A DNA stretch of 64,000 nt from Promethearchaeota archaeon (GTDB lineage Archaea; Asgardarchaeota; Lokiarchaeia; Sigyniarchaeales; SOKP01): contig JAHLWS010000069.1 in NCBI GenBank assembly GCA_019057795.1, positions 46,835 through 110,834 of the forward strand, read 5' to 3'. The notes under the pieces were generated by a model. That model was not told the DNA's origin. It ran no database searches and worked only from the letters and a program-made list of their open reading frames with translations. Positions 15,820-29,886 of the stretch are shown in pieces (position 1 is the stretch's first letter; each line of letters begins with the position of its first letter). The translations under genes and the position numbers were made by a program.

Positions 15820-16191
15820 GTGAATACTATGAACGGAAAAATGAAATTTTATTCATTGTTAGGATTTTTCCAATTAGTGCTTATATTAATTGTGTTTTTT
15901 AGTGTAGATGGAATTATCACTATGGTTGCAGCACAAACAGAGAGTTTTGATTACTATAATTCTCCAACAGCGGCGATTTTAGCGATTTCAGCAGCAATCT
16001 CCCTTTCAGCAGCAGTATTAGGAAGTGCAATCGCTTTAAAAACAGTAGGTACAGCAGCAATATCATCTTTATCCGAAAGAGAAGAAAGTTTTTTTAAAGC
16101 ATTCTTAGTTGTTGCATTGTGTGAGGCTTTAGCCGTATATGGTTTAATTGTTGCCATCCTCCTCTGGACAAAAATCCCCACGCCAGGATAA
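15820..16191 (+). CDS. atpK: A/V-type ATP synthase subunit K (c, proteolipid)
   Basis: Hydrophobic hairpin with ALCEALAVYGLIVAILL (ion-binding Glu) plus an extra N-terminal hydrophobic segment. Confidence 0.92.
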   Translation: MNTMNGKMKFYSLLGFFQLVLILIVFFSVDGIITMVAAQTESFDYYNSPTAAILAISAAISLSAAVLGSAIALKTVGTAAISSLSEREESFFKAFLVVALCEALAVYGLIVAILLWTKIPTPG

Positions 16192-16231
16192 TCTTGATTT
16201 ACATTTAAAATCGTTAAGAAGGTGTTTTTTT

Positions 16232-17293
16232 ACGAGTGAAATTATTCCGTCTTATGCTTATACATATATTAAAATCGATTATTTAAAACTATTAATAATT
16301 GATGATGACACTTTACTAAAACTTAAAAGAATCTACGATATTGATGACTTCATGGAATCTATTAGACCTTACTATCCTAATTTAGATTTCAAAGAAAATA
16401 CTATTGAAGATATTGAAGTAGCTCTTAATAATAATTATATTAAGCTAATTGGTAAAATTTTACATTATTCCCCCCAAAACATGAGAATATTCTTAAGAAA
16501 TTATCTCATGAAATTTGAAATACAAAATCTCAAACAAATAATCATCAGTTTAATTTTAGGAATTAATCTAGAAGAAAAAAGAAAATACATTAATTTTTTA
16601 GTTGAAGAATATTTAGATAACACGGAATTCATTGAAGAATTGCTTAAATTTACTTCTTTAGACGAAATACAATTATTTCTTAAAAGAACTAAATACAATA
16701 TAGCTATTAGAGAAGGGATTCTTTACTTTAAGAAAAATAAAGAAATTTTTATTCTGGAAGCTTTTTTAGATCAATTATATTATAAGCAACTTAATGCTCA
16801 ACTGGAACGTTTAAATAAAAAAGAGAAAACAATGATATCGTTGTTTGTGAAATATAAAACTGAAATTTATAATATAAATGTGATTTATAGGGGAATAAAA
16901 AATAAAATTGAAGGAAAATTATTATCTCAATTTCTTGTAAATAATTATTTATTCCTAAATGAAAGTAAATTAGAACAATTGTTAAATCTTGATAATGTTG
17001 ATGAATTTATATCAATTATTAAAGAATATTTGAAGAATATTAAGGAAACAAAACCATTTTTTATCAAGCTAAAAATTAATCAAAAACACTTAATTAGGTC
17101 AATTGAACAATTTTATATAACTTATTATTTTAAGAAATTTAAGATTAAAATTGACGATATTGATTTTTTCACCATTTACAAAATTTTAGAAATACTTATA
17201 AAAAAAGGGGGAGAAATCCGATTTATTATATTACCCCAGGTAATTAAGATCCTTCACTATAAGTTTAAAGCGTTAAAAACGCAGAAATTTTAA
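16232..17293 (+). CDS. atpC: A/V-type ATP synthase subunit C (d)
   Basis: Operon position and size; N-terminal YAY, EIQNLK, LDQLYY, EIYNINVIYRG. Probable start is ACG at 16232 after GGTG; the ORF-track TTG at 16148 lies inside atpK. Confidence 0.8.
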   Translation, partial: TSEIIPSYAYTYIKIDYLKLLIIDDDTLLKLKRIYDIDDFMESIRPYYPNLDFKENTIEDIEVALNNNYIKLIGKILHYSPQNMRIFLRNYLMKFEIQNLKQIIISLILGINLEEKRKYINFLVEEYLDNTEFIEELLKFTSLDEIQLFLKRTKYNIAIREGILYFKKNKEIFILEAFLDQLYYKQLNAQLERLNKKEKTMISLFVKYKTEIYNINVIYRGIKNKIEGKLLSQFLVNNYLFLNESKLEQLLNLDNVDEFISIIKEYLKNIKETKPFFIKLKINQKHLIRSIEQFYITYYFKKFKIKIDDIDFFTIYKILEILIKKGGEIRFIILPQVIKILHYKFKALKTQKF

Positions 17294-17353
17294 AGTTAAT
17301 TATGAAATTATGAAATAAAATATTTAATAGATAATAATATGTGAGTTGTAATA

Positions 17354-17665
17354 ATGCCAATTTTTAAATGGGTTGAAGAAATCGAAAATATTTATGAAAA
17401 TTTGATTGAAAACGCTAAAAAAGAAAGTTTAGAAGACATTGAGAAATTAAAAGCTTCATTAGAAAAAAATATGGAAAAAAAACTTCATAATAATCAAGAA
17501 ATTATTAATTCTGCCTTAAAAACACTTTCAAAAGAAATTGATGAAAAATCATTAAAATTCGGAGAGTCAATATCAAAATTATATAGCAAAATAGAAAAAA
17601 ATTATTATGAAAATAAGGAAGGATTAATGAATTTAATATTTGAGAAATTAGGATTTGATTTTTAA
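17354..17665 (+). CDS. atpH: A/V-type ATP synthase subunit H (G), peripheral stalk
   Basis: 103-aa charged coiled coil (IENAKKES) within the ATPase operon; TAATG overlap with atpF. Confidence 0.7.
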   Translation: MPIFKWVEEIENIYENLIENAKKESLEDIEKLKASLEKNMEKKLHNNQEIINSALKTLSKEIDEKSLKFGESISKLYSKIEKNYYENKEGLMNLIFEKLGFDF

Positions 17666-17982
17666 TGCCTGATAAAAAAATACATGTATTAGGTTACGAC
17701 GAAATAGTTTCATTGTTTGGTCTTTTAGGTATTGAAGGAACGATAATTAAACATAATGAAGATTTTTTAAAAATTTTTAAAAATTTAATAAAAAAATCTT
17801 CTGTTGCTATGATAATTATATACATGGATTTATCAGACGAAAATCTCGAATTTCTAACAGATTTTAAAATAAATAATAGGACACCATTTGTATATTTATT
17901 ACCAAATATTTTTCAACAAGATATAAAGAATCAAGATAAGGTATTAAACAAAATTTACGAATTGATAGAAGAAATTATATAA
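17665..17982 (+). CDS. atpF: A/V-type ATP synthase subunit F
   Basis: KIHVLGYDEIVSLFGLLGIEG...P.VYLLP, 105 aa. Confidence 0.88.
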   Translation: MPDKKIHVLGYDEIVSLFGLLGIEGTIIKHNEDFLKIFKNLIKKSSVAMIIIYMDLSDENLEFLTDFKINNRTPFVYLLPNIFQQDIKNQDKVLNKIYELIEEII

Positions 17983-18016
17983 AAAAAGATGATCGGCCAT
18001 TAGTGAAGGAAATGAC

Positions 18017-18721
18017 ATGAAAGAGAGATTTGGAAAACTAAGTTTGTATTTAATAAATCAAGCTGAAAATGAGATAAAGAAGATCAATCAACAATCCCTC
18101 TTTCAAATGGCAGAAGTTAGAAAAAAAGCTAGGGAAAGAACTTCAGAAAGCTCTTTAAAATTGAAAGCGCATTTTAACGAAACATACAATAAACTATTAA
18201 ATAATTCTCTATCTTCTTATCTCTTGAAAATTAAAGAAGAAGTATTAAAATCTAAAAACAAATTAATGTTGGAACTTATTTCAGATTTAACAGACTTAAT
18301 AAAAGACAAAATAAAAAATAATTATTCGAGCTACATTAGTTTTTTACTAAAAAATCTTGAAAATATCAAGGATTTTGTGGATAAACCCCCGGAGATTATC
18401 ATTCACTTAAATTCAATAGATTTTAAATATTTCAGCAATAATATGGGAAAGATTGAAAGTATATTAAGAAATAAAATAAGTTTAGTCAAGTCAGAAGAAG
18501 AATTTACGGGAGGTTTTAAGTGTGTAATTATGGCCGGACATTTATCTTACGATTATACGATTGAAAATCAATTAAAGAAGATCACACCGATTATAGAAAT
18601 TGAGTTTTCAAAGATTTTTTCTGACTCCGAGACTGATATTAGAGCTCTAGAAAATAATTATATTGAATTTATCCAAAATCAAAAATTAGCTGTAAACGAA
18701 TATTTAAAGAAATATGAATGA
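18017..18721 (+). CDS. atpE: A/V-type ATP synthase subunit E
   Basis: N-terminal coiled coil and C-terminal GGF...YDYTIENQL motif; lies immediately before atpA. Confidence 0.85.
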   Translation: MKERFGKLSLYLINQAENEIKKINQQSLFQMAEVRKKARERTSESSLKLKAHFNETYNKLLNNSLSSYLLKIKEEVLKSKNKLMLELISDLTDLIKDKIKNNYSSYISFLLKNLENIKDFVDKPPEIIIHLNSIDFKYFSNNMGKIESILRNKISLVKSEEEFTGGFKCVIMAGHLSYDYTIENQLKKITPIIEIEFSKIFSDSETDIRALENNYIEFIQNQKLAVNEYLKKYE

Positions 18722-20555
18722 AATTAAAGAAAAAATTAAGTCCGGATATATCTCATCTATAAACGGATCCTTAATAGAAATAAAAGGCTTAGAAAACTAT
18801 GTACGGCTAAATGATTTAATTAAGGAGTCTAAACATAAAATTTTAGGCGAAGTAATCCAAATTTATTCAGATCATGTTACTGCTCAATGTTTTGAAAATA
18901 CTTCTAATTTAAAATTAAATGAAGAAGTTATTAGTTTACAAGAACCCTTATCAATGGAATTAGGTCCTGGTTTATTAGGACATATCTTTGATGGTATTCA
19001 AAGACCATTGGAAGCAACTTTTTTGAGTTCTAAAGGCGAAGGATTTTTAAAGAGAGGAGTTGATTTACCTGCTTTATCAAGAGCGAAAAATTGGCATTTT
19101 AAACCAGTAAAAAAGATAAATGATTATGTAAGTACGGGGTATGTAGTTGGAACCGTTCAGGAAACAGAACTCATTGAACATAAGATTATGATTCCATTAG
19201 GAATTTCCGGAAAAATAACCTATATTGCAGAAGAAGGAGAATATACTGTTAGTGACGAAATTTACCGCTTGAAAAATGGTTCCAAAGAAAAATCGTTTAA
19301 TATGATTCAAAAATGGCCAATCACCAAAAATAGGCCTTATAAAGAGCGAGGCTTTCCTAATGAACCACTAATTACAGGAATGAGGGTAATCGATTTACTA
19401 TTTCCAATAGTAAAGGGAGGTACAGTTGCCGTTCCTGGAGGATTTGGAACGGGCAAAACGGTAATCCAACAATCTCTAGCAAAATGGTGTAACGCAGATA
19501 TAATTATTTTTGTTGGATGTGGAGAACGAGGAAACGAGATTGCAGACGTCTTAAAACAGTTTTCTGAAATAAAAGATCCAAAAAGTGGACGCCCGTTATT
19601 AGAACGAATTGTTATCCTAGCTAATACATCTAATATGCCCGTATCTGCGCGAGAAGCAAGTATATTTTCTGGAGTTACAATTGGTGAATATTTTAGAGAT
19701 ATGGGGTATGATGTAGCAGTTTTAGCAGACAGTACTTCAAGATGGGCAGAATCATTACGGGAAATATCAGGGTTATTAGAAGAAATGCCGGCCGAAGAAG
19801 GATATCCGGCTTATTTACCCTCTAAAATTTCTAGCTTTTATGAAAGAGCTGGTGTTGTTAAGATATTGGGAGAAAAAGATTCTGGAAAAGAGAAATTCGG
19901 GTCTATAACAATTATTGGTTCAGTATCACCGCCTTCAGGAGATTTCAGTGAGCCCGTTACTTCAACTACAAAGCGTTTTGTTCAGGCTTTTTGGGCATTA
20001 GATGCGAGTTTAGCATATTCTAAACATTATCCTGCGATTAATTGGTTAAATTCATATTCAAAATATCCTGAATTCATCTCAGATTGGTGGTTTGAAAGAG
20101 ATATTTATTGGCCTGAGATAGATATAGATTGGTACGAGTGTAGAAAACAAATAAATAGCATCCTATCTCAAGAAAACGAACTAAAAAATGTCACCCAATT
20201 AGTTGGTGAAGAAAACTTACCAGAAAATCAACAATTTATCCTATTCATTTCACGATTGATTAGAAATGGTTTATTAATTCAAAATGCCTTTGATTCTATA
20301 GATTGTTTTACAGACGTTAAAAAATTAATTGGAATAGTAAAACTCATTCTATTACTATTTAAAGAAGGCAATCAACTCTTAAAGCAAGGTTTTCTAATTG
20401 AAGATATCAAAGAACTCGATGTTGTAAATGATATTCTTAGGACTTGCCGTACTGTTCCTAATAATAATTTTGTTCAAATAGAGAAATTAAGAAAGAAAAT
20501 GCTAAACGAAATAGAGTCATTAAAATTAACATATGGTATTTTTAGGAAAAAATGA
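18714..20555 (+). CDS. atpA: A/V-type ATP synthase catalytic subunit A
   Basis: [15 protein letters not shown] (Walker A), [36 protein letters not shown]. Confidence 0.97.
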
Positions 20556-21943
20556 GCGTAATTTATAGAAAAATAAAACAAATTGTTGGACCTTTAATAT
20601 TTCTAGATAATAGACACGATGTACAATATGGTGAAATCGTTAAAATTCATTCTGATGATGGAAAAGAACGTATAGGCCAAGTCGTAAAAATGGATGAAAA
20701 GATTATAACAATTGAAGTATTTGAAAATACAGCTGGACTTTCTTCAGAAAATTCTACAATTACTTTTACTGAAGATTCTTTTAAGATAAAAATTTCAAGT
20801 GATATGATTGGAAGAGTTTTTAACTCCTTAGGAAAACCTATTGATATTAATACGAAACAAGTGTTAGATTCAGACATTTTTACCGAAATTGAACGGGATA
20901 TAAACGGTTTACCAATTAATCCTTTTGCAAGAGAATATCCAACGCAAGTCATCCAAACGGGAATATCGGTAATAGACGGTCTTTTTACCTTAATAAGAGG
21001 ACAAAAACTCCCAATATTTAGTGGTCAAGGATTACCCCATAATCTATTAGCTGCTCAAATTGTTACTCAAGCAAAAGTTTTGACAGAAGAACCATTCTTA
21101 ATAATTTTTTGTGGAATTGGAATTATCCAAGATGAAGCAATTTTTTTTATGAATCGTTTTAAAGAAAGTGGAAACATACAAAATATCATTTCTTTTATCA
21201 ATTTTGCTGACGATCCAATAATGGAAAGACTAATAATTCCGCGCGTAGCATTAACTACTGCGGAATATTTTGCATTTGAAAAAGATATGCATGTTCTTGT
21301 TGTTTTAATAGACATGACGAATTATGCTGAAGCTTTAAGAGAACTAAGCTCCGCCAAAGAAGAGATTCCTAGCAGAAAGGGGTATCCGGGTTATTTATAC
21401 ACTGATTTCGCATCGATCTATGAAAGAACTGGTAAAATTAAAGGTAAAAAAGGGACAATAACCCAATTACCGATTTTGACGATGCCTAACGACGACATTT
21501 CTCACCCAATTCCGGATACAACAGGGTACATAACTGAAGGTCAGTTAGTTCTAAATCGTAACTTAGAAAAAAAAGGAATATATCCCCCTTTTGAAGTCTT
21601 AGCGTCTATATCACGACTTATGAAAGACTCAATCGGTAAAGATACTACTAGGGAAGACCATGCTGATGTTAACTCTCAACTATTAGCATCGTATTCAGCT
21701 GCCCTTGAAGTTAGAGATCTTATATCGATTGTGGGGGAAGATGGATTAAACTTAAATCAAAAATCGTTATTAAGATTTGGTAACTTTTTCGAACAAAATT
21801 TTTTAAATCAAGGGTACACAGAGGAAAGGGATTTTTCAACGACTCTCAATATTGCATGGAAAGCTTTATCTAATTTACCAAAAAATCAATTATTTAGAAT
21901 ACATGACGATTTTATTGATAAGTATTACATTGAAGAGGTGTAA
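20552..21943 (+). CDS. atpB: A/V-type ATP synthase subunit B
   Basis: [50 protein letters not shown]. Confidence 0.97.
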
Positions 21944-22588
21944 GTATCAATTAGTTTTAGAGAGTTTAAGCCCACAAAAACAAATTTAATGAGTCTACAG
22001 AAAAGGTTAACTTTTGCTGTTAAAGGCGAAAATTTTCTAAAATTTAAATTAGAACAAATAATATTTGAAATCAAAAAAAATTGGGATAATTATTTAAAAC
22101 AACGTGAAATCTTTTTAGAATTATTCAAAGAAACTATGATTAAACTTAATCAAACATATAAAGAAATGGGTAAACGAGAATTTAATTTAATTAGCAAATT
22201 AAGTAAAATCCAATATAACCCAATGATTTCTATAAATTATATAAAGAAGATTGGAACATTAGTGCCAATAATAGATTACAAACTGATACGGGAGGAATCG
22301 CTTCCAGCTTACTCTTTTGAAAATACATCTCATTATCTTGATGATTTGATTATTCTTTTAATAAAGTTTTTTGAAAGCCTTATAATTTTTTCACAGTCTG
22401 AAGATCTATTATTGAAACTCTCCCTAACTTTTAAAAAAATAAATCGTAGGATAAATGGTCTAAAGAATGTAATAATTCCTGAACTACAAATAGACATTAA
22501 AAAAATTAAAGCTATATTAGAAGAAATTGAAAGAGAGAATTATGTTCGGTTAAAAAATACAAAAGATCTTATTACAAAAAATGTTTAA
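21944..22588 (+). CDS. atpD: A/V-type ATP synthase subunit D
   Basis: INRRINGLKNVIIP, LEEIERENYVRLK. The conserved N-terminal KPTKTNL lies upstream of the ORF-track ATG at 21989, so the true start is at about 21944-21950. Confidence 0.88.
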   Translation, partial: VSISFREFKPTKTNLMSLQKRLTFAVKGENFLKFKLEQIIFEIKKNWDNYLKQREIFLELFKETMIKLNQTYKEMGKREFNLISKLSKIQYNPMISINYIKKIGTLVPIIDYKLIREESLPAYSFENTSHYLDDLIILLIKFFESLIIFSQSEDLLLKLSLTFKKINRRINGLKNVIIPELQIDIKKIKAILEEIERENYVRLKNTKDLITKNV

Positions 22589-22605
22589 GTGAGGAATGAA
22601 AAAAA

Positions 22606-24894
22606 ATGACAAAGAAAAGCCCAATGGAATTATTTAAGGTAAATATTAATCGTAATTACAAGGATCTTCTATTACAACACCTATCCCAGCTTAATCTAGT
22701 TCACATTAAAACGAAACCTGAAATAAGCGACATAATTGAAAAAGATAAAGTTTTGTTTGATAGAATTAAGAAATTAAGCCAAAATTTAGAAACCTTATTC
22801 AAAAACCTTAATATTACTGAATCTGACTTCCAGAAATTAATATTTGAAAAAGAAGAGAGAAAAGAATTTGATGCTAAAGATATAGACGATTTGTTAAATC
22901 AAATATTGAGTGAAATTAATTTTTATTCAAACCGTGTTAATGAGTTAAAAAGATATATGATCACTATCAAAGTGGAATTGGATAAAATAAATTTGATTCA
23001 TGTAAGTTACATATTTTTGGAAAAATATGATTTAACGCGAACTAAATTATCGAAGTTTAATCGATTAGAATTTAAAGCCTTTACAACCTTCTCAAAGAAC
23101 CTCGAAAATATAGAGAATCTTTTTGAATTTTCTTATTTTCCGAATTTTTTTCAGTATGATTTTTTAAGCGATGAAAGAATTGCCTTTTTCGTAATCTATC
23201 CAAAGGAAAAAGAAGAGGCATTTAGAGAGAGAATACGCCTCATTCATGCCGAAGAAGTACCGATTCTTAAAAAATATTTGCAGTCAAATGGGATAAACTT
23301 TCCTCGTATAGCAGATGAAATCAAGTTTATTGTGTCGTCCTTAAATAAATATCAAAAGGAATTAGAACGATTAAGAGACAATAACATACTATTATTTGCT
23401 GCTACGAATGAGATCATGCAAAATATAGAAGAATATAATTGGGCTTCACATCAATTCGAAGAATTATCTTTAAATCGATTAAGTTTGAGTTTTTTTATTC
23501 CACAAGAAAAAAAACAAGAAATACAAAAGGGGTTGATTGAAAAGTTCCAAGATCAAATAACGATTGAATCAATCGCTATTACAAAAGATAGATCTGTTAG
23601 TTTAAAAGAAGATAAGAGCCATATACGCCCAAGAAAGTCACCAGACTCCAAAAGGAAAGACTCTTCATTAAAGGAAGAACCGACCAATAATAATAAAGAA
23701 ATTAAAAAGGATTTAAGAAATACAGCTCCTACAATTATGAAGAATAATTTCTTTATGAGACCCTTTGAAACTATTACTAAAATGTACGGTGTTCCTGCTT
23801 ATTCAGAAATTGATCCCACTCCCTTTTTGGCAATAACATTCCCAATTTTGTTTGGATTGATGTTTGGGGATATTGGACATGGTATCACATTAATTATCTC
23901 CGGTTTAATTGGAGCATTTGTCTTTAGGAACAAAAAAAGTACCGATTTCTTAAATTTTTGCTGGATCATTCTGTATTGTGGAATCGGTTCTATACTAGTT
24001 GGGATTTTATATGGCGAATTTTTTGGGATGCATGACATTGAATTATTTGGAACGATTTTTTTACACTTAGAACCTGTTACCATTCCATTTTTGAATATCA
24101 CTTTACACAATCCATTGGAAAATATAATGGTTGTTTTTAAGTTTGCTATATTAATTGGGGTAGTACATATTAATTTGGGCTGGTTCATACAATTTTTGAA
24201 TTATTGGAAGCAGCATAGAAAATACTTAGGTTTTACTGACTCTTTAGTTAAAATCTGGTTATTAACTGGGGGAACTATTTTAATTTTTACTTTTGGTTTT
24301 GATATCTATGTATGGATGGCACCTCCTTACCCAATTTTGTTGCCCTTGCTCCCAGGTATATTATTAATACTCTTAAAACCATTTGGCAAAATTTTCCACA
24401 TTTCTTATTTGAAAGAAGAGACAATTGGAGGCCTTATAGGGGAAGGTACAATGGAGTCATTTGAAACATTATTATCGATAATGAGCAATGTAGCATCTTA
24501 TATAAGATTACTAGCTTTAGCTTTAGCACATATCTCTTTAATGGTCGCAATTCAAGCAATGGGGAATTTATTTCAAGGTGGGGCGTTTATTAACGAGATA
24601 ATTAATATAGTAGGATTGATATTAGGTAATACGCTTGTTATTTTACTAGAAGGATTACTTGTTTTTATAAATACCATCAGGCTCCATTTTTATGAATTTT
24701 TCTTCAAATTCTATCAAGGAACTGGAGTTACATATATCCCTTTTTATTTAGACGATGAATATTCTATCGTTTCCTTTAAATTAAGCGCCATAAAAGATGT
24801 TATTTCCGAAGAAATAGATAAAGAGATTGAATCAAAGAAAACTCATGAGGATATAATTAAAGCAGAAAAATACATTTATAAAAAATATTTATAA
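22606..24894 (+). CDS. atpI: A/V-type ATP synthase subunit I (a)
   Basis: MYGVPAYSEIDPT, FGLMFGDIGHG, SNVASYIRLLALALAH (essential Arg), RLHFYEFF. Confidence 0.96.
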   Translation: MTKKSPMELFKVNINRNYKDLLLQHLSQLNLVHIKTKPEISDIIEKDKVLFDRIKKLSQNLETLFKNLNITESDFQKLIFEKEERKEFDAKDIDDLLNQILSEINFYSNRVNELKRYMITIKVELDKINLIHVSYIFLEKYDLTRTKLSKFNRLEFKAFTTFSKNLENIENLFEFSYFPNFFQYDFLSDERIAFFVIYPKEKEEAFRERIRLIHAEEVPILKKYLQSNGINFPRIADEIKFIVSSLNKYQKELERLRDNNILLFAATNEIMQNIEEYNWASHQFEELSLNRLSLSFFIPQEKKQEIQKGLIEKFQDQITIESIAITKDRSVSLKEDKSHIRPRKSPDSKRKDSSLKEEPTNNNKEIKKDLRNTAPTIMKNNFFMRPFETITKMYGVPAYSEIDPTPFLAITFPILFGLMFGDIGHGITLIISGLIGAFVFRNKKSTDFLNFCWIILYCGIGSILVGILYGEFFGMHDIELFGTIFLHLEPVTIPFLNITLHNPLENIMVVFKFAILIGVVHINLGWFIQFLNYWKQHRKYLGFTDSLVKIWLLTGGTILIFTFGFDIYVWMAPPYPILLPLLPGILLILLKPFGKIFHISYLKEETIGGLIGEGTMESFETLLSIMSNVASYIRLLALALAHISLMVAIQAMGNLFQGGAFINEIINIVGLILGNTLVILLEGLLVFINTIRLHFYEFFFKFYQGTGVTYIPFYLDDEYSIVSFKLSAIKDVISEEIDKEIESKKTHEDIIKAEKYIYKKYL

Positions 24895-24914: not shown

Positions 24915-25439
24915 ATGAAAACCGAAAACACGAAAGAAAACTCATCCAAGAAAAATATTTTTCTCAAAATATTACTACCAATTGTTTGTCTAGTTGTGAT
25001 AATCTTTTTATATATTATTTTGATGGAATTTGGAGTACATCCACTTCTCATTATTTTAATACTAGGATTTGTGCTGTTACTGTTTGTAGGATCCTTTTTT
25101 ATGGAAAAAAAGCAAAGCCCAATTTATTCAAAAATTTTTCCTTATAAAAAAAGAAGAAGTCAAGATTTTCATCGAAAATTGGAAATAAAGATAGAAACGG
25201 AACCTGAGAAACCGGTTCAAAAAGATTTTAAAGAAGTGAATCTAAACTTTAAGTATCGCAAATCCCTTATGAATAAATGCGAAAATTGCGGGATGCTTAT
25301 AACAAGCTACAGGAAAAATTGCCCTACATGTGGTCAAGCACTTGAAATGAAAGAAATTGTGAAGAAATGTAAAAATTGCGGAATGTTAATTACAAAGTCT
25401 GTGAAAATATGTCCAATTTGTAGAAAGCGAACAATATAA
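24915..25439 (+). CDS. membrane protein with two C-terminal double zinc-ribbon repeats
   Basis: Two N-terminal TM helices; CENCGMLITSYRKNCPTCG and CKNCGMLITKSVKICPICR. Confidence 0.8.
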   Translation: MKTENTKENSSKKNIFLKILLPIVCLVVIIFLYIILMEFGVHPLLIILILGFVLLLFVGSFFMEKKQSPIYSKIFPYKKRRSQDFHRKLEIKIETEPEKPVQKDFKEVNLNFKYRKSLMNKCENCGMLITSYRKNCPTCGQALEMKEIVKKCKNCGMLITKSVKICPICRKRTI

Positions 25440-25481: not shown

Positions 25482-27293
25482 ATGGTCACAGAAACAAATA
25501 ATTCTAATTTGGGTTTTATATCTGCCGTCAATGGATCATTAGTGGAGGTTAAAGGATTAGAAAATCAGGTTCGGCTTCACGATTTAATTAAGATTAGTAA
25601 ATATAACATTATTTGTCAGGTAATTCAAATCTACGCGAATCGAGTAATAGCCCAATCTTTTGAAAGTACTAATAGTATAAAGTTACACGATAAAGTAATT
25701 AATCTCAACGAACCTTTATCCATGGAGTTAGCACCAGGATTGTTAGCAAATGTTTTTGATGGAATTCAGAGACCTTTAGATCTTACTTTCAGCCAGTTTA
25801 AAGAAGGAAGATTAGGAAGAGGCCTTGAATTTCCCTCTTTATCAAGAACAAAAAAATGGCATTTTATTCCATCAAGCAAAATAAATGATTCTTTAAGTAG
25901 TGGAGATGAAATTGGTACCGTTCAAGAAACATCCTTTTTTGAACATAAAATAATGATTCCTCCTGAAAATTCTGGTATTTTATCGTTTATTGTTGACGAA
26001 GGTGATTATACAATCATCGAAGAGATATATACCTTGAAAAAGCAGAATGTAGAAAAATCTTTTTGTATGTTACAAAAATGGCCAGTCACTATGAGCAAAC
26101 CTTATAGCTCAAAAGAGCAACCTAGCGAACCTTTACTAACTGGCTTGCGTATTGTAGATTTATTGTTCCCCATAGCTAAAGGTGGTACTTTTGCGGTTCC
26201 AGGAGGGTTTGGAACTGGTAAAACAATTATTTCACAACATATAGCTAAATTTTGTAACGCAGAAATTTGCGTTTTTATAGGATGTGGAGAGCCTGGCAAT
26301 GAAATTGCAAATTTTCTAAAACAATTCACGGAAACTATCGATCCCAAAACGGGAAGACCTTTAATAGAACATATTGTTCTTATTGCTAATACTTCAAATA
26401 TGCCCGTATCTGCTCGCGAAGCAAGCCTTTTTTCAGGAATTACAATAGCAGAATATTATAGAGATATGGGTTACGATGTTGCCGTTGTAGCAGATAGTAT
26501 TTCGAGATGGGCAGAATCATTAAGGGAGATCTCAGGGTTATTAGAGGAAATGCCTGCTGAAGAGGGTTATCCTGCGTATTTGCCATCGAAACTATCAAGT
26601 TTCTTTGAACGAGCCGGTGTTATTACAACTTTAGGGAAAAAAAAAGGATCAATTACAATCATAGGATCGTTATCTCCACCAGCTGGTGATTTTAGCGAAC
26701 CGGTTACCGCAGCTACTAAACGTGTTGTTCAGGGGATTTGGGCTTTAGACCCTAAATTAGCATATCTAAAACATTATCCTGCAATTAGTTGGATCAGTTC
26801 ATATTCCAATTATCCTGAGTATGTAGCAGAATGGTGGAGCGAGAGAGACATTGTTTGGCCTGAGATAAATTTAAACTGGTTTGAGTGTAGAAAACAAGTA
26901 AATGAGATTTTAGCAAAAGAAAACGAGTTGAAATATCTTACCCAGCTACTAGGGCTAAAGAATTTAGCTGAAGATCAAAGGTTAGAAATTTTTACGGCAA
27001 ATCTAATAAGAAATGCTTTTTTAGTTCAAAACGCTTTCAACGAAGTAGATAGTTATACGAGTAGTAGAAAATTGCTAGGGTTAGTAAAAGTAACACTTTT
27101 ATTATATAATAAAACTAAATCACTCGTAAAGCGAGGCTTTCTAATTGATGAGAAGAGGTGTGATGAAATTCTCAATGAGATTATGAAAATTAGCCATTAT
27201 GCTCCTAATGAAAATTTTGAACAAATTGAAGAGCTAAGGGATAAAATTAATAATGAATCTTTAGGTTTAGTTTTTAAAGTTCATCGAAGATAG
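25482..27293 (+). CDS. atpA: second A/V-type ATP synthase subunit A paralog (GEPGNE variant)
   Basis: Full-length homolog of 18714..20555 with an intact Walker A (PGGFGTGKT). The catalytic motif reads GCGEPGNE. Confidence 0.93.
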   Translation: MVTETNNSNLGFISAVNGSLVEVKGLENQVRLHDLIKISKYNIICQVIQIYANRVIAQSFESTNSIKLHDKVINLNEPLSMELAPGLLANVFDGIQRPLDLTFSQFKEGRLGRGLEFPSLSRTKKWHFIPSSKINDSLSSGDEIGTVQETSFFEHKIMIPPENSGILSFIVDEGDYTIIEEIYTLKKQNVEKSFCMLQKWPVTMSKPYSSKEQPSEPLLTGLRIVDLLFPIAKGGTFAVPGGFGTGKTIISQHIAKFCNAEICVFIGCGEPGNEIANFLKQFTETIDPKTGRPLIEHIVLIANTSNMPVSAREASLFSGITIAEYYRDMGYDVAVVADSISRWAESLREISGLLEEMPAEEGYPAYLPSKLSSFFERAGVITTLGKKKGSITIIGSLSPPAGDFSEPVTAATKRVVQGIWALDPKLAYLKHYPAISWISSYSNYPEYVAEWWSERDIVWPEINLNWFECRKQVNEILAKENELKYLTQLLGLKNLAEDQRLEIFTANLIRNAFLVQNAFNEVDSYTSSRKLLGLVKVTLLLYNKTKSLVKRGFLIDEKRCDEILNEIMKISHYAPNENFEQIEELRDKINNESLGLVFKVHRR

Positions 27294-28057: not shown

Positions 28058-28981
28058 TTGGTATTAAGAGAATCTTCTGCCGCGGGAATTTATTATCCAC
28101 GATCCAAATCGGATTTAATTAAAATGTTGGATGAATCCTTTTTAGATAAAGAATTTGGCCCAAATGAAAAATTCGACTCTTTAAACGAAAAAACAAGAAC
28201 AGTATTTGGTGGAATATCTCCACACGGGGGTTACGTTTATTCTGGTAGCTGTGCGGCGCATATGTATTTACATTTGTTTAAGGAAAAAATCCCGGATACA
28301 GTTGTAATATTAGCCACTGAAGATTTAGGATATAACAACATTGCTTTATTAGAAGTAGGTGAATGGGAAACTCCTTTAGGTAACTTAGAGGTTGATAGCG
28401 ATTTGTCTCAAAAATTGCTAAAAACGAGTAGCATGGTTAAAGGAGATGATTCTGCATTTGTTGGATTTCCCTTTGGAAGAGAATACTACATTGATGTACA
28501 ATTGCCGTTTATTAAATATTGTGCGTTAAAGAGAGAGATAAAAATCTTGCCAATTATTATTTCTATAATGGATTATGATAAATTAGATAAATTATCTGAA
28601 AATATCGCGAGAGCAGTCCAATCCTTAAACAAAGATATAGTATTTATAGGTTCTACAGATATGAGTCATATTATTTGTAAAGATGAATTTACTGCTGAAC
28701 TTAAAGTGCAAGAAATGCTCTTAGCAGATAAAACTGTAATCAAATCGTTTACAGAATTTAATCCAAAGAAGATTTTTTTTGATGCGTCAAAATCTTCTAT
28801 AAAAGGGCCACAAATTCTTACCACATTAATGCTAATATGTAAAAGGATGGGTGCTAACGAATGTAGAGCTCTAAGTTATTACACTAGTTATGACAAAGGT
28901 GGAGGAGCTGGTCCATGTAAATATAATGTAGGATATTTTTCGGGGATTATTATAAAAGATTTAATAGAAAAAGAACAATAA
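28058..28981 (+). CDS. MEMO1/AmmeMemoRadiSam protein B paralog with degenerate metal site
   Basis: SPHGGYVYSG, WETPLG, VQLPF, STDMSH, VGYFS; several His/Cys ligands are replaced. Confidence 0.85.
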   Translation: MVLRESSAAGIYYPRSKSDLIKMLDESFLDKEFGPNEKFDSLNEKTRTVFGGISPHGGYVYSGSCAAHMYLHLFKEKIPDTVVILATEDLGYNNIALLEVGEWETPLGNLEVDSDLSQKLLKTSSMVKGDDSAFVGFPFGREYYIDVQLPFIKYCALKREIKILPIIISIMDYDKLDKLSENIARAVQSLNKDIVFIGSTDMSHIICKDEFTAELKVQEMLLADKTVIKSFTEFNPKKIFFDASKSSIKGPQILTTLMLICKRMGANECRALSYYTSYDKGGGAGPCKYNVGYFSGIIIKDLIEKEQ

Positions 28982-28995
28982 TTATTTAGAAGAAG

Positions 28996-29886
28996 GTGAC
29001 AAAATTGGTTATAAGAAAAGCATCACATGCGGGAAGTTGGTACCCTGGCAAAAAAGAAGATTTAATAAAAAACCTTGATTATTTGTTTTCTGATAAAGAG
29101 TTTGGGCCAGGTAAATTACCTGAGACGCTAAACCAAGATAGTAGGACTATAATTGGAGGTGTATCTCCTCATGCGGGATATACCTTTTCTGGAAGATGTG
29201 CCGCCTTTACGTATTTGAACTTATTTAAAGAAAAAATCCCGGATACAGTTATCGTATTAGGGACTGATCATGTTGGCTATGGAAAGGTGGCTCTATTAGG
29301 AGATGGCGCTTGGGAAACGCCTTTAGGAAACTTACTAATTGACGATGAATTATCTAAAAAGATTTTAGATACAAGTGAAATTATTGTTGAAGATCGTTCT
29401 GCCTTCACTGGCTTCATGGAACAAGAACACAATATTGAAATACAATTACCTTTCATTAAATATTGCGCTAAAGATAAAGATGTAAAAATAGTAACGCTAA
29501 AAATTGGAATTAGAAGGGATTATAACATATTTGAGAAAATAGCTTCTGATATATCTGCAGCAATTAAGGCGTTAAATAAAGATATTGTTATTGTAGCATC
29601 GTCTGATATGTCACATAAAGAGGTTTTTGATACAAATCAATTAAGTGAGTTTAAGAAATTTGATCAAGATGTTATTGATGCTTTTATAGAATTAAATCCT
29701 AATAAAACTCTTTCAGCTGCTTCAAAAACAACCGTATGCGGAGCCCAAACAATAACGACTTTAATGTTAATTTGTGAAAAATTAAACGCAACTAAAGGTG
29801 AGTTGTTAAAATATTATACTAGTAGCGATATTAGGGGAGGATATGGATATTGTGTTGGATATTTTTCGGGAATTATAGTAAAATAA
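28996..29886 (+). CDS. amrB: MEMO1/AmmeMemoRadiSam protein B
   Basis: AGSWYP, SPHAGYTFSG, GTDH, WETPLG, EHNIEIQLPF, SSDMSH, VCG, VGYFS. Confidence 0.92.
   Translation: MTKLVIRKASHAGSWYPGKKEDLIKNLDYLFSDKEFGPGKLPETLNQDSRTIIGGVSPHAGYTFSGRCAAFTYLNLFKEKIPDTVIVLGTDHVGYGKVALLGDGAWETPLGNLLIDDELSKKILDTSEIIVEDRSAFTGFMEQEHNIEIQLPFIKYCAKDKDVKIVTLKIGIRRDYNIFEKIASDISAAIKALNKDIVIVASSDMSHKEVFDTNQLSEFKKFDQDVIDAFIELNPNKTLSAASKTTVCGAQTITTLMLICEKLNATKGELLKYYTSSDIRGGYGYCVGYFSGIIVK

Follow-up and report, generated by a model that had tools for sequence, protein, structure and literature searches.

A second A subunit with proline in place of the GER arginine is maintained beside the canonical A-type ATPase subunit in a Lokiarchaeial family

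We have analyzed a 64,000-nt stretch of DNA (the window) from Promethearchaeota archaeon (GCA_019057795.1, contig JAHLWS010000069.1, positions 46,835-110,834 of the forward strand), a genome of Lokiarchaeial lineage comprising 4.95 Mb in 87 contigs. The window holds one A-type ATPase operon on the plus strand, recognized from Pfam and NCBIfam matches, together with two genes for the catalytic (A) subunit. The first of these, A1, is canonical. The second, A2, has proline at residue 271 in place of the arginine of the GER sequence. A2 is intact and selectively maintained. On balance we favor the view that it is a conserved isoform of the catalytic subunit lacking this arginine, which takes up a nucleotide-binding but non-turning-over position in the A3B3 head and throttles the motor.

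The A2 gene is an open reading frame (ORF) of 603 aa, uninterrupted by frameshift or internal stop. Its product passes the Pfam cut-offs for ATP-synt_ab_N (PF02874), Xtn (PF16886), ATP-synt_ab (PF00006) and VA_C (PF22919). These four domains are the N-terminal β-barrel, the barrel-sandwich 'bulge', the RecA-like nucleotide-binding domain and the C-terminal helical domain of the V/A type respectively. A2 shares 62% identity with A1 from end to end, and a phmmer comparison with the A subunit of P. horikoshii gives E = 5e-167 over residues 11-592. It scores 696.5 bits against the NCBIfam subfamily NF003220 (PRK04192), for which the cut-off is 470. The equivalog TIGR01043 (archaeal AtpA, cut-off 972) is missed by A2 (685 bits) and by canonical A1 (757 bits) alike, and its threshold gives no discrimination between the two. 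Since both fall below that model and pass only the subfamily model, the A subunits of the Lokiarchaeial family that holds A2 (family f1 below) are divergent as a whole. A2 is a member of the A-subunit family by descent and fold, and is not a canonical catalytic subunit. We also considered A2 as a non-catalytic subunit of the B or F1 α type. This was rejected, because A2 keeps the P-loop and the catalytic glutamate, lies within its family's A clade in the trees, and is ~30% identical to B. The original prediction, made from the letters of the window, had described a full-length second atpA free of frameshift and truncation in which Walker A and the catalytic glutamate are intact, and both parts of that description hold.

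The A2 site reads GGA TGT GGA GAG CCT GGC AAT GAA, encoding GCGEPGNE. The codon in A1 (GCGERGNE) that corresponds to CCT at 26292-26294 is CGA, at 19527-19529, and both are as first reported. Proline is present in 113/113 distinct A2 sequences, and arginine in 43/43 A1 sequences. A family-wide signature comparison of 32 A2 and 52 A1 sequences gives the same division at position 271 (P in 32/32, R in 52/52). All four proline codons are in use among 16 A2 orthologs (CCT 8, CCA 4, CCG 3 and CCC 1). The P-loop, E270, N273, E274, R312, D338 and R342 are invariant in the 113 A2 and 43 A1 sequences alike, and K247 and T248 are likewise invariant across the A2 set; a P-loop variant GKS occurs in three family members outside the 113-sequence set. 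The nucleotide-binding residues of A2 have been kept, as had been supposed at the outset.

Across the family only six positions separate A2 from A1, namely 271, 277, 316, 397, 415 and 429 (Table 1), and there is no basic residue among those that A2 has there (P, N, L, I, V and L). Position 277 lies seven residues past the catalytic glutamate. Aspartate is found there in P. horikoshii A, and seven residues after the catalytic glutamate of F1 β as well (GERTREGND). This conserved aspartate shares the 'arm' helix with the GER arginine; in E. hirae the helix comprises residues 261-275 and bears that arginine (PMC5095293). Together, R271P and D277N remove a positive and a negative charge from the A2 pocket.

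The nearest named relative, 'Promethearchaeota archaeon Loki_b31', has an A2 that is 92% identical, and GEP is present in 97 of the 120 best database matches. In a survey of 24 genomes of the same genus a second A copy was found in 15 others; this was GEPGNE in every case, and the first copy was GERGNE. Over 100 independent assemblies, coming from several sources, have the proline, and the reading frame is intact in each full-length A2 ortholog examined. Ratios of nonsynonymous to synonymous substitution (dN/dS) were calculated pairwise by the NG86 method for pairs with dS < 0.7. They lie in the range 0.08-0.15 for A2, and 0.06-0.15 for A1 from the same genome pairs. Measured by domain, the sequence entropy of A2 nearly matches that of A1 in the N-terminal crown barrel and bulge, and is moderately above it in the nucleotide-binding and C-terminal domains. 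The idea that A2 is a decaying duplicate, or that the proline is an error of assembly or sequencing, has nothing in its favor except the single substitution. Given the number of assemblies, the four proline codons, a dN/dS of ~0.1 and the intact frames, it is excluded for practical purposes. The original prediction had raised the possibilities that the proline was peculiar to this assembly or an error, and that dN/dS was about 1. Neither is so; the proline is fixed in the orthologs, a search of Asgard genomes for GEPGNE finds it in 72/400, and the ratio is an order of magnitude lower.

In a tree of the genus the A2 sequences form one clade (Shimodaira-Hasegawa-like approximate likelihood ratio test, SH-aLRT, 99) with a topology that mirrors that of A1. 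In a tree of 94 sequences drawn from the whole family, the branching of A2 largely repeats that of A1, and the A2 copies of one genus do not separate from their own A1. A single A2 clade is not rejected family-wide in the approximately unbiased (AU) test, where the constrained tree is better by 0.17 units of log-likelihood (lnL; p-AU 0.50). One clade of A2 sequences indicates one origin. The segment 'ERDIxWPEI' inserts 6-7 residues that are missing from P. horikoshii A and from family f2, a neighboring Lokiarchaeial family. It is common to A1 and A2 of family f1, and the duplication is thus internal to the lineage, in agreement with the original prediction. The trees and the insertion trace A2 to a single duplication event within one Lokiarchaeial family.

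The exact pattern GCGEPGNE(I/M) occurs in 72 Asgard genomes out of 400, every one of them in family f1 (five genus codes). It is found in 0/266 Asgard genomes outside the family, and a reversed control pattern gave no matches. When two-copy genomes and motif variants are included, A2 is present in ~60% of the 135 species-level genomes of the family (about 80), covering seven genus codes. The variants lying outside the exact pattern are CCGEPGNE (genus g17), GEPGSE (G256) and that of genus g19. A scan of GTDB species genomes was made for TGYGGNGARCCNGGNAAYGAR. Most of the matches listed are chance matches in bacteria, and the genuine ATPase matches among those listed are all from Promethearchaeota or 'uncultured archaeon', the scan not being exhaustive outside Asgard. 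No 'EP' occurs at the site in 123 aligned representatives of 50%-identity clusters, where A1 and A2 share one cluster so that GEP variants are not resolvable. We found no description of a Lokiarchaeial A paralog in the literature, papers on ATP synthase evolution included.

What should replacement of the arginine do? The original prediction held that the GER arginine contacts the γ-phosphate, and studies of V1 and F1 agree. In E. hirae V1, A-Arg262 touches the γ-phosphate jointly with Lys238 and the arginine finger B-Arg350 (PMC5095293). The homologous residue of E. coli F1, β-Arg182, is needed for Pi binding, the transition state and ATP synthesis (PMC3268026). Neither β-R182Q nor β-R182K synthesizes ATP, and both have low ATPase activity and no longer bind Pi, with MgADP binding as before; β-R182Q abolishes formation of the transition state, and R182K retains some ATPase activity and transition-state formation (PMC3268026). 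By analogy, A2 should bind nucleotide but not Pi, without normal turnover, so that its site is likely to work very slowly or not at all. An impairment of catalysis, as put forward in the original prediction, is what these mutants lead one to expect. A hybrid F1 with a single slow β subunit (βE190D) still rotates, with a long pause at the angle of that subunit (PMC2755722).

The whole genome has just three members of PF00006, which are A1, B and A2. B is its sole non-catalytic B subunit, and there is a single D gene. With one B and one D, A2 must either share the single complex or act alone, and for the same reason it probably sits in the same A3B3 head as A1. We modeled A2 (residues 1-560) with B (residues 1-440), obtaining an interface score (ipSAE) of 0.65, where the best of three controls reached 0.00. 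A3B3 structures have already been solved, and this score may reflect them; it indicates likeness only. The same mark is reached by 58/80 solved complexes and by 2/110 mismatched pairs. At least 95% of contacts are shared among the three runs, and the partner has a predicted local distance difference test score (pLDDT) of at least 84. The modeled interface is the catalytic one, and includes residues 242-244 of the P-loop, 271-273, 275-277 and 428-430. Of the 560 residues 59 belong to it, and half of the six signature positions (271, 277 and 429) are among these 59 (p ~0.02 by our own binomial estimate).

We propose the following mechanism. A2 keeps the whole fold, the P-loop, the glutamate that activates Mg and water, the second arginine of the phosphate pocket (R312) and the Walker B aspartate, and its surface is about as conserved as that of A1. 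It has lost the 'arm' arginine that binds the γ-phosphate and Pi (R to P) and the conserved aspartate that follows after one and a half turns of the helix (D to N), with four hydrophobic adjustments around the pocket. Such a subunit would bind nucleotide, and replace A1 beside the shared B in some or all of the A3B3 positions. It would be unable to bind Pi or stabilize the transition state. Wherever A2 stood in the ring, the site would be dead or very slow, throttling ATP-driven rotation and reducing the number of productive sites per turn. We infer the catalytic defect from the mutants of the homologous residue, and put forward entry into the head and the physiological role in the same conditional sense.

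A number of observations weigh against this mechanism. At least 11 genomes of family f1 have a contiguous locus running from I through a zinc-ribbon gene to EndA (a tRNA-intron endonuclease gene), with no A2 and no second copy elsewhere. These loci indicate that A2 has been lost repeatedly or is dispensable, and its absence from several lineages fits an accessory or regulatory part and not an obligatory one. In some genomes (G217, G190 and G191) A2 is unlinked from the operon, as might also be the case if it acted apart from the complex. The operon of G217, a closed genome, is broken between D and I, such that I, the zinc-ribbon gene and A2 lie 0.86 Mb from E-A1-B-D. In genus g17 (G190 and G191; loci L199 and L201) A2 is a lone gene with CCGEPGNE and the P-loop GKS. 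Its neighbors there are unrelated (a hydrolase, a major facilitator superfamily (MFS) transporter and DUF998), and none is homologous to the zinc-ribbon gene. In B, no position distinguishes the genomes that have A2 from those that do not, and co-adaptation of B to A2 is rejected on that ground; none is required, however. Lastly, the glutamate and every other residue of the site are perfectly retained, which is more than plain nucleotide binding seems to need. Given that retention, some residual or altered chemistry in A2 may persist.

A2 might indeed be a working catalytic isoform with altered kinetics and not a dead site. It could be a one-way ATP-driven pump with weak rebinding of Pi and no synthesis, it could have a changed nucleotide preference, or it could relieve MgADP inhibition. 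Lys247, Arg312 and the arginine finger of B would carry the chemistry. The invariance of E270, K247, T248, R312, D338 and R342 in A2 suggests selection on chemistry besides binding, the dN/dS of A2 is as low as that of A1, and the behavior of β-R182K provides a precedent for ATPase activity and transition-state formation with the arginine replaced (PMC3268026). Yet proline offers neither a charge nor a hydrogen-bond donor, and it is the neutral β-R182Q that abolishes the transition state (PMC3268026). Moreover, there is no compensating charge at the six A2-specific positions, and no A2-linked change in B. We therefore regard a working isoform as unlikely. It is also conceivable that A2 functions outside the rotary head, as a free sensor binding ATP or ADP, as a chaperone or assembly factor for A3B3, or as a cap sequestering B or the stalk subunits. 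Its location at the far 3′ end of the operon would suit such a role, as would its occurrence as an unlinked, monocistronic gene (G190 and G191) or with I and the zinc-ribbon gene away from A1-B-D (G217), and the several lineages without it are what is expected of an accessory factor. A subunit freed from the head should have lost constraint on the surfaces that contact the ring and stalk, but conservation of the N-terminal barrel and bulge equals that of A1. The distinction between A2 and A1 is furthermore limited to six positions, three of which are placed by the model in the catalytic interface with B. A function wholly outside the head seems to us rather improbable.

A2 can be compared with several known systems. 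It resembles the A/V-type AtpA/NtpA subunits (P. horikoshii 1VDZ/3M4Y, T. thermophilus 3A5C/3W3A and E. hirae 3VR2) in its four-domain architecture and length, its P-loop, catalytic glutamate and Walker B, and its operon location. It differs from them in having proline for the GER arginine (R262 in E. hirae) and asparagine for the aspartate seven residues after the glutamate, and in being a second copy beside a canonical A where there is only one B and one D. The β-Arg182 mutants of E. coli F1 are altered at the same structural position as A2. Those are engineered, single changes in an F-type enzyme, whereas A2 is a natural, conserved A-type paralog in which proline is accompanied by five further co-fixed changes. 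The B subunit (A/V) and α (F) are, like A2, paralogs of the catalytic subunit. They are ancient, and lie in the same hexamer where they bind nucleotide without turnover. A2 looks like a young repeat of the evolutionary step that gave B and α. The route is opposite, however. B and α have a degenerate P-loop or have lost the catalytic glutamate, but A2 has kept both and lost the arginine. In F-type α, Gln-Lys is found where β has Glu-Arg. The βE190D hybrid F1 rotates with a pause, which is the behavior proposed here for mixed A1/A2 heads, but it is an artificial construct. We know of no natural case in which mixed catalytic subunits of the A1/A2 kind are encoded in a genome.

The remaining genes of the operon are collected in Table 1 with the signature positions of A2. 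The product of the zinc-ribbon gene has 174 aa. Its N-terminal half is hydrophobic, and four CxxC pairs make a double zinc ribbon. Its gene lies directly after atpI in all Lokiarchaeial atp loci examined, with or without A2, including the closed genomes of family f2. Its orthologs are 25-87% identical to one another, and the gene is evolving fast. The zinc-ribbon protein was considered as a specific partner or tether of A2; this was rejected, since the gene also follows atpI in loci that lack A2 and in family f2. It is a candidate for a lineage-specific accessory subunit of the A-ATPase. The EndA gene lies beyond A2 in convergent orientation, and just beyond it are two tandem genes of the MEMO1/AmmeMemoRadiSam-B family (28058-29886 of the window, plus strand).

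Table 1. Genes of the A-type ATPase operon and signature positions of A2. Coordinates are those of the window, except in the last row.
Feature	Position	Strand	Basis or remarks
Operon remainder: K, C, H?, F, E, (A1, B), D, I	15820..24894	+	Pfam and NCBIfam
K	15820-16191	+	
C	16148-17293	+	
Small H-like ORF	17354-17665	+	
F	17665-17982	+	
E	18017-18721	+	
A1, canonical catalytic A subunit	18714-20555	+	GCGERGNE
B, non-catalytic subunit	20552-21943	+	Pfam; presumed partner of A1 and A2
D	21989-22588	+	
I	22606-24894	+	
Membrane-anchored double zinc-ribbon gene	24915-25439	+	Pfam DZR/Zn_ribbon; between atpI and A2
A2, second A/V-type ATPase catalytic (A) subunit, GEP variant	25482-27293	+	ORF, Pfam, NCBIfam; 603 aa
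A2 Walker A/P-loop, residues 241-248	26202-26225	+	GGFGTGKT, intact
A2 catalytic glutamate E270	26289-26291	+	GAG, kept
A2 P271	26292-26294	+	CCT, in GCGEPGNE, in place of the GER arginine
A2 N277, 'arm' helix	26310-26312	+	A2 N/H/S 30/32; A1 D 52/52; outgroup D 7/7
A2 L316, four residues past phosphate-pocket Arg312	26427-26429	+	Ile in A1 and outgroups; L in 112/113 A2, I in 43/43 A1; family-wide 32/32 and 52/52
A2 position 397			V in A1; I/L in A2
A2 V415	26724-26726	+	A2 V/L/I 32/32; A1 F 52/52
A2 L429, three residues ahead of conserved aromatic Y432	26766-26768	+	Ser/Ala in A1; L in 113/113 A2; A1 S in 41, A in 2; family-wide L in 30/31 A2
Split operon parts of G217:C1 (L190 and L191)	about 3.05 Mb and 2.19 Mb		

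Other divergent A subunits were encountered. In G194, a 97% complete genome of family f1 (genus g20), the sole A gene reads GCGIRGNE, with isoleucine for the catalytic glutamate, and has the P-loop GAVGTGKT. It lies at G194:C32:43135-44955 (locus L206:7639-9438, minus strand) in an operon E-A-B-D-I, and no second A copy was found in this genome at E <= 1e-10. This could be an artefact of the metagenome-assembled genome (MAG), or an ATPase without a canonical catalytic subunit. About a dozen distant A-like proteins (31-40% identity) without the catalytic glutamate are present among the 123 aligned cluster representatives (P0177, P0182, P0212, P0214, P0230, P0243, P0252, P0261 and others). They have G, A, L, I, K or D instead, and most keep the arginine. 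These metagenome proteins are a different, unnamed kind of degenerate A-like protein. Finally, G031, of the neighboring family f4, has two A genes on separate contigs (L025 and L047), both with GER. One has the insertion of the f1 type, and the other is without it and lies on a long branch. The pair could represent a second ATPase or contamination, the genome being 78% complete with 5% contamination.

Few enzymes are understood as well as the rotary ATPases, whose three catalytic subunits are assumed to be identical products of one gene. A2 is a natural second catalytic isoform, in which an essential phosphate-binding arginine has been replaced, and it is kept under strong selection in an Asgard family with one rotary ATPase. 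This suggests that the motor is regulated or re-geared by way of head composition. Mutagenesis has found this arginine indispensable, and A2 provides a ready-made natural experiment on its role. It may equally serve as a young example of the step that once yielded the non-catalytic α and B subunits. A bolder possibility, which we hold to be a long shot, is that mixed heads such as A1(2)A2(1)B3 constitute a genetically encoded gear change. If that were true, the A2 position would idle in ion-driven rotation, and two ATP (or one) would be made per turn, not three. The ratio of ions to ATP would be higher, and syntrophic, energy-starved archaea could make ATP at a lower ion-motive force. In reverse, the same site would brake wasteful hydrolysis. 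The rotary ATP synthase would then be tuned in a new way, via the number of active sites, where the known way is the size of the c-ring. A2 also bears on how energy is managed at the thermodynamic limit in the archaeal relatives of eukaryotes.

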